A DNA stretch of 63,994 bases, filler included, from Acidimicrobiia bacterium (GTDB lineage Bacteria > Actinomycetota > Acidimicrobiia > Spongiisociales > CAZKJJ01), in assembly GCA_046759765.1 (NCBI GenBank). It is 4 parts of 4 records of this genome, joined end to end, with 100 filler letters (N's around TTAATTAATTAA, not from the genome) between each part and the next. Parts side by side here need not be neighbours in the genome. Positions count along the whole stretch, not along the records: positions 40,865 to 60,720 come from JBHICV010000031.1; 3 more parts are not named here. One strand, given 5' to 3'. The stretch's first letter is position 1; every line of letters begins with the position of its first letter. Position numbers and translations under genes: made by a program. The notes under the pieces are model-generated. The model saw nothing but the letters and a program-made list of their open reading frames with translations. It ran no database searches and was not told where the DNA came from. Shown here piece by piece: positions 20,496 through 60,820 of the stretch.

Positions 20496-20595
20496 NNNNN
20501 NNNNNNNNNNNNNNNNNNNNNNNNNNNNNNNNNNNNNNNTTAATTAATTAANNNNNNNNNNNNNNNNNNNNNNNNNNNNNNNNNNNNNNNNNNNN
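20496..20595. other. Artificial contig linker
   Basis: N44-TTAATTAATTAA-N44 (stop codons in all six frames). Confidence 0.98.
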
Positions 20596-21072: not shown

Positions 21073-21146
21073 CGGGCTGTGGCGCAGCTTGGTAGCGCGC
21101 GTGCTTTGGGAGCACGAGGTCGCCGGTTCGAGTCCGGCCAGCCCGA
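21073..21146 (+). tRNA. tRNA-Pro(TGG)
   Basis: CGGGCTG/CAGCCCG acceptor, CGTGC-TTTGGGA-GCACG anticodon arm, GTTCGAGTC. Confidence 0.96.
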
Positions 21147-21188
21147 CACAATGAGGACGCGGACCCTGACGCTAGGATTTCAGCGCGG

Positions 21189-21260
<72 letters not shown>

Positions 21261-21264
21261 CGAG

Positions 21265-21338
21265 GCCCCCGTAGCTCAGCCGGACAGAGCAGGAGCCTTC
21301 TAAGCTCAAGGTCGGGGGTTCGAATCCCTCCGGGGGCG
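21265..21338 (+). tRNA. tRNA-Arg(TCT)
   Basis: GCCCCCG/CGGGGGC acceptor, GAGC-CTTCTAA-GCTC, GTTCGAATC. Confidence 0.95.
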
Positions 21339-21354
21339 CTGCCGGCCACCCCGT

Positions 21355-21429
21355 GGTGACCGTAGCTCAGTTGGTTAGAGCGCCGGGTTGTGGACCCGGA
21401 GGTCGCGGGTTCGAGTCCCGTCGGTCACC
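21355..21429 (+). tRNA. tRNA-His(GTG)
   Basis: Encoded G-1, GTGACCG/CGGTCAC acceptor with C73, CCGGG-TTGTGGA-CCCGG. Confidence 0.96.
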
Positions 21430-21455
21430 CTGATCCATCGATCCCAAGGAGCAAC

Positions 21456-40764: not shown

Positions 40765-40864
40765 NNNNNNNNNNNNNNNNNNNNNNNNNNNNNNNNNNNN
40801 NNNNNNNNTTAATTAATTAANNNNNNNNNNNNNNNNNNNNNNNNNNNNNNNNNNNNNNNNNNNN
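40765..40864. other. Artificial contig linker
   Basis: N run with TTAATTAATTAA. Confidence 0.98.
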
Positions 40865-41239
40865 GGGTACAAGCAGGTTTGGAGGGTTTACGACCAAAGA
40901 GGACGGGCGACTGCAGATGTGCTTGCGCTCCGGGATGAGGACATTCAGTCGACCTCGGAGCTGCGGCTCTATCACCCGACGGACTACGGCGTGAGACGCC
41001 ACCTGACCCGCGAGGACATATCGTCCGCGGAGCTGATGCTCGGCACCGCTTTCGAAGGCGGCAAGCGCACGCAACCGGAGGCGCCGCTGGGAGAGCTCAG
41101 AGAGCGACGGATTCAGGATCTGGAGAGGCTGGACCCGGGCGTGCGTCGACTCGTCAATCCACACCGCTACCACGTCTCGCTCACTAGCCGGCTGTGGGAT
41201 CTGAGACAGGATCTCATCGAGCAAGCTCGCAGCAAGTGA
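40865..41239 (+). CDS. pncB: Nicotinate phosphoribosyltransferase, C-terminal fragment
   Basis: GYKQVWRVYD..G.ATAD..., RRLVNPHRYHVSL..RLWDL resembles the NAPRTase C-terminus. Confidence 0.75.
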   Translation, partial: GYKQVWRVYDQRGRATADVLALRDEDIQSTSELRLYHPTDYGVRRHLTREDISSAELMLGTAFEGGKRTQPEAPLGELRERRIQDLERLDPGVRRLVNPHRYHVSLTSRLWDLRQDLIEQARSK

Positions 41240-41493
41240 CGATGATCAACATCGAGGAGCATCGGGCCCCCGAGATAAAGCGAGGAGACCGCACTTACGT
41301 GCCCGTGGCGCGCACGTGGAGAGTCGGCTTCAGAGGCGGCGGATACTCTTACACGGTCCCACATCGCATCGAAGTTGCAAGCCCCGGAAAGGAAACCGAA
41401 TGGATTCGAATCCCGGATCCCCAACGAGTGATCAAGTTGGTGGCCGGTCTCGTAATGGGTCTGGGTCTGGCTCGGCGACTAATGAAGGGATGA
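41236..41493 (+). CDS. Hypothetical protein with C-terminal hydrophobic segment
   Basis: GTGA/ATGA overlaps with both neighbours. Confidence 0.6.
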   Translation: MTMINIEEHRAPEIKRGDRTYVPVARTWRVGFRGGGYSYTVPHRIEVASPGKETEWIRIPDPQRVIKLVAGLVMGLGLARRLMKG

Positions 41494-41849
41494 AGATGGA
41501 AACCATTGACGAGATCTCGAGCGGAGTTCAGGAAGGGTTCGACCGGCTGATCGGCGGCCTGTCGGCAGAGGCGGTCTTCGGTGCTCCTCAAGAGATAGGG
41601 GAGCGCATCGTCTTCACAGCCGCGGCCATCGAGCGGATGGGGGGCTTCGGATTTGGCGGCGGCTTCGATGAGTCCGCCGGCGGAGGAGGAGGCGGCGGCG
41701 GAGGTGGCCGGGCCGAAGGACGGCCCGTTGCGGTCATCGAGATCGACGACGCCGGCGTCCGAATACAGCCCGTAATCGACGTGACTCGCATCGGCGTGAC
41801 GGTGGCACTGGCGCTGTTGGCGCTCCTGAAGGGTGGCCGCGGCGGTTGA
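41490..41849 (+). CDS. YtfJ/GerW-like protein
   Basis: VFGAP...GGFGFGGG...GGGGGG...PVAVI pattern. Confidence 0.7.
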   Translation: MKMETIDEISSGVQEGFDRLIGGLSAEAVFGAPQEIGERIVFTAAAIERMGGFGFGGGFDESAGGGGGGGGGGRAEGRPVAVIEIDDAGVRIQPVIDVTRIGVTVALALLALLKGGRGG

Positions 41850-41852
41850 CAT

Positions 41853-41963
41853 CGTTCTTGTGACGTTTCAGGAGCCCATAGGTAGTTGAGCGTCACAGGA
41901 ATCCGTGCCGAATCTGGTTGTGTCGTCTGAACGCCGTTTGGGTAGTTGAGCGTCAGAAGAACG
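41853..41963. repeat. Two tandem copies of the 50-bp REP-like element
   Basis: CGTTCTTGTGACGTTTC..GGTAGTTGAGCGTCACAGGAA and TTGTGTCGTC..GGTAGTTGAGCGTCAGAAGAACG. Confidence 0.75.
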
Positions 41964-42013
41964 GGAGGGGGACTGACTCGCGGAGGGGGACGAGAGGGGT
42001 GCTGGCTTCATCT

Positions 42014-42041
42014 AGTTAACATAAGAGGGATTATGGGCAGT
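42014..42041 (-). other. dif-like XerC/XerD recombination site
   Basis: Minus strand ACTGCCCATAA-TCCCTC-TTATGTTAACT; 11-6-11 layout; XerD arm differs from E. coli TTATGTTAAAT by one base. Confidence 0.85.
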
Positions 42042-42073
42042 CAAATCCCTCGAGTCTGCACCACCTCTAGATA

Positions 42074-42087
42074 ACGTCACGTGACGT
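42074..42087. promoter_or_regulatory. Palindrome ACGTCACGTGACGT (candidate binding site)
   Basis: Perfect 14-bp palindrome; the same core recurs at 42456-42479. Confidence 0.6.
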
Positions 42088-42115
42088 AATTGCACGCCAA
42101 AGGAGGGGTGTCTGC

Positions 42116-42454
42116 ATGCAGCCCGATCAAACTTGCGTCTGGTGCGGCGCTGCGTTTGTACGCACCGCGGGTCCAGGCCGCCCACGCCTCTACTGCCGGC
42201 GGAGCCACCGACAGCGCCATCACGAGGCGAAGACGTTGGGTACTCGCATGGGTCTGGGTACGGATGACGTTTTGATAGGCCGGGACGCCTACAGGTCGGT
42301 GCGCGATCAGATCTACGTTCTGCAAGCCGCGCTCGAGGACGCGGCTGCCGACCTGGGCGAAGGCGCTGAGTGCATCGACGTGCTCAATGACCTGAGGGGG
42401 GCGGCTCGTCCATTGGTGAGGATCCGTTGGGATCCAAAGGCCGTAGGGAGCTGA
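42116..42454 (+). CDS. Small putative Zn-finger protein (CxxC...CxxxH, GRPR motif)
   Basis: CVWCG...GPGRPRLYCRRSHRQRHHE followed by a helical C-terminus; AAGGAGG RBS. Confidence 0.75.
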   Translation: MQPDQTCVWCGAAFVRTAGPGRPRLYCRRSHRQRHHEAKTLGTRMGLGTDDVLIGRDAYRSVRDQIYVLQAALEDAAADLGEGAECIDVLNDLRGAARPLVRIRWDPKAVGS

Positions 42455-42455
42455 T

Positions 42456-42479
42456 CTATTTCGTCACGTGACGAAATAG
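42456..42479. promoter_or_regulatory. Perfect 24-bp palindrome CTATTTCGTCACGTGACGAAATAG
   Basis: Loop-less palindrome starting 2 nt after the stop codon. Confidence 0.65.
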
Positions 42480-42510
42480 CGCCAAAGAAGGGGCCGTTAG
42501 TCTGCCCGCC

Positions 42511-43392
42511 GTGCGCGTCGTCGTTGTGGGAAGCATCAACGAGGACCTCGTCGCTCGTGTGTCCCGTTTACCGACTCCCGGAGAGACCGTCAGTGGAACC
42601 GGCCACTCTTGGCACGGCGGCGGCAAGGGTGCCAACCAGGCCGTGGCGGCCGCGCGCTTGGGGGCTGAGGTCGCCATGATCGGCAGAGTGGGTGACGACG
42701 AGTCAGGACGGCGGCGGGTAGCCGATCTGATGGAAGAGGGCATCAACGTGGACCACATCGGCCGGGACGGCGATATCGAGACGGGACTGGCGCTGATCCT
42801 TGTAGATGCGCAAGGACAGAACGTGATTGCGGCTAGTCCGGGCGCCAACCATGCCCTGACGCCGGAGCACGTTGTTGCAGGCGAAGAGCTGCTGTCTGAG
42901 GCCGACGTTGTACTTCTGCAGCTCGAGATCCCGGACACAGCCGTGAGCCAAGCCGCCAAGCTGGCGCCTCACAGAGTGATCCTCAACGCGGCTCCTGCTC
43001 GGGACCTTGATCCTGGGCTTCCCCTCGATGTGACCGTGGTCAACGCAACGGAGTTGGCGACCCTCACCGGTCGACCCATCCGGCATTCGACGGAGGATTT
43101 CATCGGAGACGCTCGGGCCGTCGGAGGTGCCGTCGTGGTGACGTTGGGTGAGGGAGGTGCGGTCATCTCCTCCCACGAGGCGGGGAAACGGATGCCGGCC
43201 CCCTCAGTTAATCCGGTCGACACGACCGGCGCCGGAGATGCCTTCTGTGGCGCACTGGCGGTCAGCATTGGCGAAGGTAAGGACCTCGAGACCGCGGTCG
43301 GCTATGCGGTCGCGGCCGGCGCCGCAGCCACATTGAAGCCCGGTGCGCAACCGTCTCTCCCCTACCCTGACGAAGTCGAGGCTTTGCTCTAA
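42511..43392 (+). CDS. rbsK: Ribokinase
   Basis: GGKGANQAVAAARLG, DTTGAGDAF. Confidence 0.92.
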   Translation: MRVVVVGSINEDLVARVSRLPTPGETVSGTGHSWHGGGKGANQAVAAARLGAEVAMIGRVGDDESGRRRVADLMEEGINVDHIGRDGDIETGLALILVDAQGQNVIAASPGANHALTPEHVVAGEELLSEADVVLLQLEIPDTAVSQAAKLAPHRVILNAAPARDLDPGLPLDVTVVNATELATLTGRPIRHSTEDFIGDARAVGGAVVVTLGEGGAVISSHEAGKRMPAPSVNPVDTTGAGDAFCGALAVSIGEGKDLETAVGYAVAAGAAATLKPGAQPSLPYPDEVEALL

Positions 43393-44333
43393 TGGCTGCT
43401 CAAAAGATCATCATCGATACCGATCCGGGACAGGACGATGCGGTTGCCCTGTTGCTGGCGCTGGCTTCTCCGAAGGAGCTGGAAATCCTCGGGGTCACAA
43501 CCGTCGCCGGAAACGTTCCCCTGAAGCTGACGTCGAGGAACGCTCGGATCATCTGTGAGCTTGCCGATCGCCCCGAGGTCGGCGTCTATGCAGGTTCCGA
43601 TCGGCCCCTTCGGCGGGACCTGGTGACCGCCGAGTACGTCCACGGCAAGACCGGGCTCGACGGGGCAGATCTTCCCGAACCAACAATGCCCCTACAGCCA
43701 ACCGAAGCTGCCGATTTCATTGTGGAGGCCGTATTGGGGACCAAGCCGGGAACGGTCACCCTTTGCACTCTCGGACCGTTGACCAACATCGGAACCGCCC
43801 TCCAGAGAGAACCAAGGTTGGCATCGTCACTTCAGCAGATAGTGATGATGGGCGGTGGCTTCTTCGAGGGAGGCAACACGACGCCTACCGCAGAGTTCAA
43901 CATCTACGTCGATCCGGAAGCGGCTGCCCTGGTGTTCACATCCGGGATACCGATCACGATGATGCCACTTGATGTCACGCACCGCGCCTTGACGACCCCT
44001 GAATTCATCGGTCAGGTAAAGGCGCTCGGGACGCCGGTGGGACAGGCCACAGCGGGAAGGCTGCAGTTCTACGAGCAGTACGACCGGCGCCGGTATGGAA
44101 CGAGCGGAGCCCCGCTACACGATCCATGCGTCATCGCCTACCTGTTGAAACCCCAGCTGTTTCGTGGCCGGGCATGCAACGTCGAGGTAGAGACGCTTTC
44201 CTCCCTAACGCTGGGTATGACGGTCGTGGATTGGTGGGGGCAGACCGATCGTCCCCGCAACGCAATGGTGATGCGTGATATCGATGCGGATGACTACTTC
44301 GATCTGATCGTGGAACGCCTCTCCGAGCTCTAG
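43392..44333 (+). CDS. Inosine/uridine-preferring nucleoside hydrolase
   Basis: DTDPGQDD, VHGKTGL, AEFNIYVDPEAA, LHDP. Confidence 0.93.
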   Translation: MAAQKIIIDTDPGQDDAVALLLALASPKELEILGVTTVAGNVPLKLTSRNARIICELADRPEVGVYAGSDRPLRRDLVTAEYVHGKTGLDGADLPEPTMPLQPTEAADFIVEAVLGTKPGTVTLCTLGPLTNIGTALQREPRLASSLQQIVMMGGGFFEGGNTTPTAEFNIYVDPEAAALVFTSGIPITMMPLDVTHRALTTPEFIGQVKALGTPVGQATAGRLQFYEQYDRRRYGTSGAPLHDPCVIAYLLKPQLFRGRACNVEVETLSSLTLGMTVVDWWGQTDRPRNAMVMRDIDADDYFDLIVERLSEL

Positions 44334-60720: not shown

Positions 60721-60820
60721 NNNNNNNNNNNNNNNNNNNNNNNNNNNNNNNNNNNNNNNNNNNNTTAATTAATTAANNNNNNNNNNNNNNNNNNNNNNNN
60801 NNNNNNNNNNNNNNNNNNNN
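60721..60820. other. Artificial contig linker
   Basis: N44-TTAATTAATTAA-N44. Confidence 0.98.

Follow-up and report, generated by a model that had tools for sequence, protein, structure and literature searches.

A zinc-ribbon protein gene and its palindrome are linked to dif in Acidimicrobiia: a candidate autoregulated DNA binder at the chromosome terminus

The window analysed here is a stretch of 63,994 nucleotides (filler letters included) from an Acidimicrobiia bacterium (GenBank assembly GCA_046759765.1). Next to a dif site, the place where chromosome dimers are resolved, it contains a gene for a zinc-ribbon protein of 112 amino acids, which is bracketed by two palindromes, P1 upstream and P2 downstream. 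When related genomes are compared, the gene is linked to dif, the palindrome overlaps the promoter of the gene, and the palindrome itself is linked to dif. The locus is interpreted as encoding an autoregulated dimeric zinc-ribbon DNA binder that marks dif via its own palindrome and acts in cis. The protein would represent a family of small zinc-ribbon DNA binders that occurs in Acidimicrobiia and has not been described before. For this reading as a whole, family assignment included, a probability of about 0.6 is assumed. A first-pass annotation of the window had reported a dif-like site, both palindromes, the CxxC...C-x3-H open reading frame (ORF) and a degenerate direct repeat, and all of them were found where it had placed them. 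It had interpreted the protein as a dimeric binder that either autoregulates and organises the ter region or forms a repeat-bounded cassette beside dif. The dimeric binder, autoregulation and the tie to dif are retained below; the organisation of the ter region and the cassette are not.

The assembly comprises 308 contigs with 2.73 Mb (2,726,369 bases) and a G+C content of 63%. The window consists of several contigs joined by pairs of N runs (44 bases each run) at positions 20496-20595, 40765-40864 and 60721-60820, so that nothing can be inferred across these joints. The locus is located on contig C31 (JBHICV010000031.1), whose base 1 is window position 40865. For the comparison at order level, 61 related genomes were used, including the unpublished G004 and G015; G000 is the present genome and G001 represents a sister genus of the same family. 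In addition, a set of 80 species was compiled from the best 80 of 276 relatives found in contigs of one genome per species. Nearly all bear the label Acidimicrobiia or Actinomycetota, with other labels on a few bins. With flanks of 4 kb, 78 of these loci could be scored.

Read on the minus strand, dif is composed of an XerC-type arm ACTGCCCATAA, the centre TCCCTC and an XerD-type arm TTATGTTAACT. The pattern CCCATAA-N6-TTATGTNAA (at most one mismatch) was found in 55 of 61 genomes of the order, nearly always once, and the reversed control gave no match. Without G004 and G015, the count is 53 of 59. In four complete relatives, dif is positioned at 43-53% of the chromosome from dnaA: G014 (dnaA at 0.50 Mb, dif at 1.59 Mb, chromosome of ~2.3 Mb), G025 (1.34, 3.03 and 3.5 Mb), G030 (1.36, 0.19 and 2.2 Mb) and G041 (1.13, 2.71 and 2.8 Mb). 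In G154, too, dif and dnaA are roughly opposite each other (4.68, 2.23 and 4.8 Mb). In G168, dif is merely 0.3 Mb away from dnaA, yet exactly at the turn of the sampled GC skew from positive to negative. The complete contig C1 of this genome (2.38 Mb) displays four changes of the skew sign, near 0, 0.30, 1.3 and 1.9 Mb, with dif at 0.30 Mb, and this pattern suggests a large inversion or a misassembly. Both dif arms resemble the dif proposed for Frankia alni (PMC3025954). Judged by these comparisons, the 28-bp site is the true chromosomal dif, unique in each genome and located at the terminus.

The zinc-ribbon gene is present in 33 of the 61 genomes, with one copy in 32 of them and two partial matches at contig ends in G032. 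Protein identity tracks taxonomy and amounts to 70% within the family and ~40-50% within the order. Gene and dif are located on one contig in 25 of the 33, at a distance of 24-2262 bp. The gene is located on the XerC-arm side and aimed at dif in 23 of these 25. In the present genome and G001 it is found on the XerC-arm side, too, yet it is aimed away from dif, which lies 79 and 55 bp upstream, respectively. Among the other eight genomes, seven have the gene within ~2.6 kb of a contig end (G002, G020, G027, G032, G034, G043 and G056), and only in G012 is it located well inside a contig other than that of dif. In many metagenome-assembled genomes, contigs end 0.1-2.6 kb from the gene (the same seven as well as C31 of the present genome). 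Such breaks would fit a population-level variability of the DNA beside dif that disrupts assemblies.

The same link is found in the species set. At 43 of the 78 scored loci, dif is present within the 4-kb flanks: downstream and in the same orientation at 41, upstream and inverted at two. In 17 of these 41 cases, it is located 2-31 bp past the end of the reading frame or overlaps it. The downstream flank is shorter than 2.5 kb in 16 of the 35 loci whose flanks lack dif. Five loci with full flanks were searched over their whole records: Four contain dif 16-18.5 kb downstream of the gene in the same orientation, and no dif was found in the record of G065. The 18 kb that separate gene and dif in G061 are occupied by ordinary genes, e.g. 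those for deformylase, urocanase and a family-1 glycosidase. Beyond the order, the gene is near dif in 8 of 8 genomes from two further orders of the class (0-450 bp); in the order comprising family f14, dif follows the gene at 0-450 bp in 5 of 5 genomes. The first-pass annotation had recommended measuring the distance between homologues and dif. This revealed that they are not scattered but tied to the true dif across the class. Apart from the gene and its antisense shadow ORF, the most widely shared neighbour family reaches just 17 of 80 loci, and therefore ordinary synteny does not explain the link. Congeneric genomes have only 28-33 bp beside dif in common, which is the dif site itself (31 bp in one pair). 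In another class of the phylum (f50; 7 genomes of 2 genera), a distant homologue is located 64-141 kb from dif and aimed at it in the three genomes checked, which count as one observation because all three belong to one genus.

The palindrome is tied to dif, too. Of 46 loci with dif, 45 have a perfect GTCAC(N)GTGAC on the XerC side, and one has such a palindrome on the XerD side. In 41 of the 45 loci, the centre of the nearest palindrome is at -261 to -593 from dif. Two genomes of family f1 have an extra palindrome at -43 and -42 plus one at -430 and -393. Different layouts preserve the spacing. In the simplest one, the dif-near site is P1 and the gene fills the gap. In the second, there is a P2 after the gene, and between P2 and dif comes a single small gene of unrelated type, frequently in the opposite direction. 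In the third, 1.5-3 kb separate the gene from P2, and P2 is still 0.37-0.58 kb away from dif. Finally, gene and dif can be far apart: In G012, where they are on different contigs, a single palindrome is present at 446 bp from dif. Where the gene is 16-18.5 kb away, three of four genomes keep a palindrome at -282, -312 and -301, and in the fourth it is at ~-2.1 kb. In 18 genomes of the order without the gene, the search for a perfect palindrome up to 3 kb from dif was negative. These data indicate that the site-dif link is independent of the gene and that site and gene co-occur. Given a background of ~1-6 copies in 2-4 Mb, the proportion of genomes in which chance alone would place a copy at up to 0.6 kb on one side of dif is estimated to be well below 1%. 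When loci are compared, the DNA that separates the site from dif shows no relationship.

The interval between palindrome and dif (0.3-0.6 kb; L044, L056-L121) contains one small gene, frequently encoded on the other strand, that is not the same in different lineages. Among these are genes for a DUF302 protein, a zf-UBP protein, a glutaredoxin/NrdH-like ORF and a conserved membrane protein. The idea that the constant spacing is the remnant of a decayed gene copy was rejected after a profile search of six-frame translations of 22 intervals (best E 0.86). Likewise, the idea of P2 as a hybrid Xer site composed of an XerC arm and a foreign arm and remaining from an integration, suggested by GCGCGCATAA ahead of P2 in one locus, was rejected; 48 dif-proximal and 20 more distal palindromes have only an A/T-rich symmetric flank and no XerC-arm consensus.

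At the upstream end of the gene, the palindrome occupies the promoter. The promoter set comprises 87 loci with a CAC(N)GTG-type core upstream of the gene; 10 more loci, mostly from family f5 with the variant TTTCATCACTGTTATGAAA, escaped the search expression. In 85 of the 87, the right arm of the palindrome contains a start codon (GTG or ATG) that is in frame and open to the CxxC motif 5-11 codons further on. A TANNNT hexamer precedes the start codon by 5-9 nt in 74 of 87 loci. The TAGATA of the window aligns with TAGAAT, TACAAT, TATAGT and similar boxes of the orthologues and replaces the TAACGT that had been proposed as -10-like hexamer at first pass. A scan of positions 41700-42700 with sigma-70 promoter and terminator consensus sequences yielded neither promoters nor terminators. 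The proteins of this family in databases start with MT(K/Q/E), or with VTVT where they were called too long. From these N-termini and the start codon in the palindrome it follows that the gene is normally leaderless or nearly so. The palindrome spans the region from the -10 box to the start codon and covers the predicted transcription start, i.e. it has the layout of an operator over its own promoter. This overlap fits autoregulation, as had been surmised before, and corresponds to the classic position of an autorepressor. The palindrome has been kept at the homologues, where the first-pass annotation had suggested looking for it.

The window is the one real exception to the leaderless start. 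Here, GTG ACG TAA closes the frame, and a Shine-Dalgarno sequence with an ATG follows 35 nt further on. The direct repeat around the gene comprises two parts, 19 nt with 89% and 14 nt with 93% identity. It is present as described before, but its CGCCAAAG(G/A)AGGGG part is specific for this genome and is not found upstream of the gene in G001. G001 keeps the leaderless GTG start and has a related GGGCAAAGGCGG-like segment only after its P2. For this reason, the repeat is inferred to have arisen here by copying of the ribokinase leader in front of the gene. It does not belong to the conserved module.

The sequence of the site varies in a regular manner. In most of the order it reads CGTCAC-N-GTGACG; family f1 and a few others have a 12-mer without the central base. 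Family f14 has CGTCATGACG with an ATG start, both at P1 and, in all three loci with a further copy downstream of the gene, at that copy. In f13, CGTCACATGACG or CGTCACGTGACG is found. In f5, a change from G to A in one arm is paired with a change from C to T in the other. By these comparisons, the palindrome is evolving as a symmetric unit. Its flanks are A/T-rich and symmetric as well (TTAC...GTAA or TTTC...GAAA). In the present assembly, the exact core CGTCACGTGACG occurs just twice (42075 and 42462), at a distance of 387 bp. When one mismatch is allowed, the window contains this 12-mer twice, with 0.48 expected. The window alone is weak evidence for the pair, since 8 of 100 shuffles also yield two or more.

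Two other explanations have to be considered for the palindromes. First, the protein could be an ordinary local autoregulated transcription factor that controls itself and the gene after P2 (here those for ribokinase and nucleoside hydrolase). Its place at dif would then be irrelevant to the mechanism and due to inherited synteny or to selection for a low-dosage, late-replicating location. P1 overlaps the promoter, P2 is located in the ribokinase leader in the present genome and G001, P2 of G025 holds the start codon of a glutaredoxin-like ORF, and many genomes lack the gene, all of which a local factor would explain. However, different lineages have different genes after P2, which in many cases run in the opposite direction and have their 3' end there, and a distance of 0.28-0.45 kb between palindrome and dif is preserved where the zinc-ribbon gene is remote. 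Furthermore, dif is present in 43 of 78 loci versus at most 17 of 80 for any neighbour family, and this holds across three orders. A purely local factor is therefore unlikely.

Second, the palindromes might be structural elements, a terminator hairpin or a cruciform, that are not bound by this protein. P2 is located just past the stop codon and its RNA can fold into a hairpin with a 9-bp stem (-16 kcal/mol for 56 nt, z -1.86, equalled by 8 of 200 shuffles). Yet this hairpin is not followed by a U tract, the terminator scan found none, and in most orthologues the palindrome gives a stem of only 5-6 bp. P1 is split by the predicted transcription start, which means that the RNA would lack its left arm. 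Moreover, the same sequence is found at the promoter and near dif, and it was not found near dif in the 18 genomes without the gene. There is very little chance that the palindromes are structural elements of this kind, unbound by the protein. A search of positions 41300-42700 against Rfam (E ≤1) returned just four chance-level matches far below the gathering scores.

No family was found for the protein in Pfam (E ≤0.01; MatP was also sought to E ≤1), NCBIfam or PHROGs. The best profile match in the PDB had an E of 0.26, and Foldseek found no match at E ≤0.001; its best rows against the PDB are helical hairpins of CsoR-type repressors (E 0.2-0.4). A word-indexed search identified relatives in 45 clusters, all unnamed. 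An exhaustive profile search yielded 1019 representative clusters at E ≤0.001 and 271 at E ≤1e-10. In a protein-atlas feature search, the nearest named clusters include some bearing YacG and DUF2116, with scores of 0.79-0.82, which are leads only. Twelve residues are invariant: G21, R22, P23, C27, R29, S30, Q33, R34, E37, D64, D75 and D79. The C-x2-C ... C-x3-C/H pattern is conserved and is modelled as a knuckle followed by a helix, without a profile match. The fourth metal ligand is His in the present order and Cys (SCRQR) in other lineages. In cysteine spacing and in the basic helix that follows, the protein is similar to C-x2-C ... C-x3-C ribbons of the FCS, TRASH and YacG type. It differs from them by the lack of a significant profile match, by the His ligand in the present order and by a C-terminal dimerising hairpin that is specific to the family.

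In the AlphaFold model (mean predicted local distance difference test score, pLDDT, 84.6), an N-terminal knuckle is followed by a basic helix (residues 29-44) and a helical hairpin (56-81 and 86-101). Prediction of the homodimer resulted in an ipSAE of 0.76 versus 0.01 for the best of three controls, with a partner pLDDT of at least 85. Three runs agree in at least 94% of the contacts, which are two-fold symmetric and involve residues 45-101. In a calibration of the dimer score, the mark was reached by 20 of 30 solved homodimers and 1 of 23 monomers; these counts hold just roughly because a custom alignment was used. According to these models, the protein most likely pairs as a symmetric homodimer via its helical hairpin, and the dimeric binder of the palindrome postulated at first pass is the most likely form.

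The more distant f50 homologues (L147-L153) have the motif CRWCGREV ... GRRRQYCRQSCRQRAYEQR and a different conserved sequence upstream (ATGATACCGGGATC ... GTCTACAGTC). No GTCAC/GTGAC palindrome was found upstream of these genes; one unrelated TCACGTGA is located ~1 kb upstream in L150. Matches on seven plasmids (locus L180, NZ_CP097802.1, and six others) cover the N-terminal zinc ribbon part alone (residues 3-51 in six Streptomyces proteins, residues 9-70 in one from Tsukamurella) and are hypothetical proteins. On one of the small Streptomyces plasmids, there are also genes for an FtsK/SpoIIIE-domain protein, a GntR-family regulator and a relaxase-domain protein. No family match was found among phage proteins.

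Taken together, the following mechanism is proposed. The C-terminal helical hairpins of two protomers would pair to form a four-helix bundle. The two modules of zinc knuckle and basic helix would then read the two half-sites of wwwCGTCAC(n)GTGACGwww. Since P1 is located within the promoter of the gene, between -10 box and start codon, the protein would repress itself. By shutting off its own transcription it might hold a low steady level that keeps the dif-proximal site occupied. At the further copy of the site ~0.25-0.6 kb from dif, usually on the XerC-arm side, a defined complex could be formed beside dif and act in cis at the end of replication. Candidate actions are the control of XerCD recombination, the control of FtsK arrival, a block of forks or transcription, and a tether. 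A tether or the loading of a partner via the invariant acidic residues may apply just as well as the analogies to known systems.

Proteins known to act at the terminus, such as Tus, RTP, MatP, the Xer recombinases and FtsK, come from few model phyla. The genes tus and rtp are located beside a terminus site and are autoregulated through TerB and TerI. Tus-TerB of Escherichia coli and RTP-TerI/II of Bacillus subtilis share with the present system a gene for a small (here predicted) binder in the terminus beside its own promoter-overlapping site. The protein could accordingly be imagined as an analogue of Tus or RTP, whose bound dimer stalls forks, FtsK or RNA polymerase near dif. The terminal location, the gene beside its own site, the position of this site over the promoter and the presence of one to three sites within a few kb of dif are compatible with such a barrier. 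Here, in contrast, the protein is unrelated (Pfam reveals no match to the Tus or RTP families). The sites are symmetric palindromes without obvious polarity, and they are located ~0.3-4 kb from dif on one side of it in 45 of 46 loci instead of surrounding it with opposite orientations. Such symmetry and one-sidedness speak against a polar fork trap, and a barrier of this kind is quite improbable.

MatP is the second known system that comes to mind. The matS consensus is GTGACRNYGTCAC with GTGAC half-sites, and about twenty matS are spread over the macrodomain. MatP/matS and the system considered here have in common a dimeric (here predicted) binder, a 13-bp palindrome of GTGAC half-sites and the terminus region. 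If the protein were a MatP-like organiser of the whole terminus region, many sites should be expected there. However, GTCACWGTGAY occurs 2-5 times per strand in complete relatives, and near dif only as the pair flanking the gene. Matches with one mismatch are scattered around the chromosome. In four stretches of 18-20 kb beside dif, the perfect sites all fall within 0.3-4 kb of it. In addition, the arms are inside-out relative to matS, as already noticed at first pass, i.e. the site reads CGTCAC(N)GTGACG. Finally, no MatP family match was found in Pfam; a search of 42 family members (E ≤0.01) detected neither MatP nor Tus nor RTP, and a zinc ribbon with a helical hairpin replaces the ribbon-helix-helix fold. 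In the complete relatives as well as in the 18-20-kb stretches, the sites are local, one to three in number and no more than a few kb away from dif. An organiser of the ter region in the sense of MatP/matS is hardly credible, and this part of the first-pass interpretation is not supported.

The same applies to the repeat-bounded cassette. A mobile or once-mobile cassette, comparable to integrative mobile elements exploiting Xer (IMEX), would have been integrated at dif by Xer recombination. The gene is indeed located on the XerC-arm side, where Xer-integrated elements would sit. The DNA beside dif is highly variable, with congeners sharing 28-33 bp and variable small genes between P2 and dif, and contigs often break near the locus. 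On the other hand, 32 of 33 genomes have just one copy, and identity declines as the taxonomic distance grows. No second dif-like site was found in the four 18-20-kb stretches with up to four mismatches; in L131, there are two chance-level dif-like matches, one of which overlaps dif itself. The palindrome flanks do not contain the XerC-arm consensus, the plasmid matches comprise only the N-terminal zinc ribbon, phage matches are absent, and housekeeping genes occupy the 18 kb between gene and dif in G061. Mobility by this route is very improbable.

Further analogies are provided by accessory factors of Xer sites. The accessory DNA of the plasmid Xer sites cer and psi lies on the XerC-arm side. 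Like cer (ArgR/PepA), psi (ArcA/PepA) and XafT of TLC-phi, the present system would position a DNA-bound or small factor near an Xer core site, and here, too, the XerC-arm side is used (45 of 46 loci). The differences are that the site is the chromosomal dif, that FtsK-gamma is kept, that the distance is 0.25-0.6 kb versus at most ~0.2 kb and that f13 uses the XerD side. None of these factors is related in sequence to the present protein. As described in PMC2731167, the recombinase genes of XerS/difSL and XerH/difH are linked to their own dif sites. The present gene is similarly conserved directly beside dif, but it encodes a zinc-ribbon protein of 110-130 amino acids instead of a tyrosine recombinase, and its dif is a canonical two-arm 28-mer.

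Several observations weigh against an autoregulated binder that marks dif. Approximately half of the order lacks the gene and has the same dif sequence, and therefore the system must be dispensable or accessory and not essential. FtsK-gamma is encoded in 58 of 61 relatives with or without the gene (56 of 59 when G004 and G015 are omitted). This rules out that the protein replaces FtsK-gamma. In f13 (one genus, 3 of 3 genomes), dif is located ~50 bp past the gene in the opposite orientation, which puts the gene on the XerD side. No palindrome is present near dif in L087, and it is found only at -1251 in L080 and at -946 in L066. In G063, the nearest one is at ~-2.1 kb, and G002 has none in the 627 bp available. 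Copies of the 13-mer with a central G or C are found in coding DNA (GTC ACC GTG ACG, encoding V-T-V-T) of most genomes, including those without the gene; because these copies are coding background, the genome-wide co-occurrence of 13-mer and gene is unusable. In addition, G014 and G025 contain a few A/T-centred copies elsewhere. The spacing of 0.25-0.6 kb could merely reflect that one small gene fits between site and dif. Lastly, the spacing between the CGTCA and TGACG cores is 0, 2 or 3 bp depending on the lineage and can differ between P1 and P2 of one genome, so that a flexible reader is needed. As 12-mer and 13-mer coexist in one locus, this reader must tolerate one base of spacing. A comparable tolerance is known from bZIP proteins, which bind both AP-1 and CRE sites.

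In spite of these points, an autoregulated binder marking dif is the preferred reading. A more far-reaching version of it can only be put forward tentatively, with odds clearly below even: a dedicated zinc-ribbon complex flanking dif, ~0.25-0.6 kb from the XerC arm, that acts directly in the last steps of the chromosome cycle and is undescribed in any bacterium. Such a complex might gate the side from which FtsK or a fork reaches XerCD-dif. It might also load or hold XerC/D, FtsK or a topoisomerase via its acidic face (D64, D75, D79). In that case, the stretch from the site to dif would be a protected slot accepting only one small gene that can be exchanged freely.

In the literature covered (subscription journals were outside the search), neither a dif-linked zinc-ribbon protein nor such a motif in bacteria was found, and no terminus-specific DNA binder for Actinomycetota was encountered in these sources. 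Terminus-associated site-specific DNA-binding systems as such are known; the protein family, the site and the dif-centred geometry are new here. One unannotated family and its putative cognate site are tied to dif across a class of abundant environmental bacteria. With one small protein, a 13-bp site and one chromosomal address, a testable handle becomes available on the end of replication, dimer resolution and the coordination of division outside the models. If the proposed structure is correct, it represents a new DNA-binding architecture, in which a zinc knuckle and a basic helix on a four-helix-bundle dimer recognise abutting half-sites. Even if the role at dif is indirect, palindrome and gene can serve as a marker for dif and the terminus in fragmented Acidimicrobiia assemblies.

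Table 1. Coordinates of dif, the palindromes, the zinc-ribbon gene and other features. Positions refer to the window unless a locus is named.
Feature	Position	Strand	Remarks
dif, 28-mer AGTTAACATAAGAGGGATTATGGGCAGT	42014-42041	-	XerD-type arm 42014-42024, centre 42025-42030, XerC-type arm 42031-42041
Predicted -10 box TAGATA	42068-42073	+	aligned with the boxes of orthologues; 7 nt before the GTG of P1
Palindrome P1, ACGTCACGTGACGT	42074-42087		core CGTCACGTGACG at 42075-42086; predicted operator; overlaps the predicted transcription start
Leader segment CGCCAAAGGAGGGG	42095-42108	+	with Shine-Dalgarno sequence; putative lineage-specific copy of the segment after P2
Zinc-ribbon protein gene, 112 amino acids	42116-42454	+	C7-x2-C10 ... 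GRPR ... C27-x3-H31
Palindrome P2, perfect 24 bp, CTATTTCGTCACGTGACGAAATAG	42456-42479		core at 42462-42473; second predicted binding site; ~430 bp from dif
Segment CGCCAAAGAAGGGG	42480-42493	+	within the leader of the downstream ribokinase gene
PfkB-family ribokinase-like gene	42511-43392	+	Pfam PF00294, 7.9e-61
Inosine-uridine nucleoside hydrolase gene	43392-44333	+	Pfam PF01156, 1e-104
Nicotinate phosphoribosyltransferase gene, C-terminal piece	40919-41239		upstream; cut by the contig start
Four-tRNA cluster Pro(tgg), Gly(tcc), Arg(tct), His(gtg)	21073-21430		on another contig of the window
Zinc-ribbon ORF of genus g15	L033:2075-2269	+	
Zinc-ribbon ORF of genus g15	L034:2754-2957	+	
Zinc-ribbon ORF of genus g15	L035:3377-3634	-	

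In the window, P1 begins 32 nt past dif. Downstream of P2, the genes for the ribokinase-like protein and the nucleoside hydrolase form an operon (42511-44333) that is a neighbour in the present family alone and lies outside the conserved module. The same ribokinase gene follows P2 in G001, and the neighbours differ in other families.

In three genomes of genus g15, which do not have the family described here, a different zinc-ribbon ORF of 65-86 amino acids (CxECGxRY ... WCSxxCE ... RRQR ... WFLR) is located beside a thioredoxin gene. It is situated 40-730 bp from dif on the XerC side, is aimed at dif and is not accompanied by the palindrome. Profile comparison revealed no significant similarity to the family (hhalign probability 1.7%). 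This ORF may be an analogue of it.

On the XerD side of dif, 53-156 bp away, the window contains two tandem copies (70% alike) of an element of ~45-50 nt, at 41858-41901 and 41918-41961. It has no match in Rfam. It has inverted ends, TTCTTGTGACG ... CGTCACAAGAA, and a conserved core, GGTAGTTGAGCGTCA; its arms hold a GTGACG/CGTCAC half-site as in the palindrome. Seven copies of its 15-mer core are present in the assembly (C1, C18 twice, C19, C31 twice and C180), often as tandem pairs.

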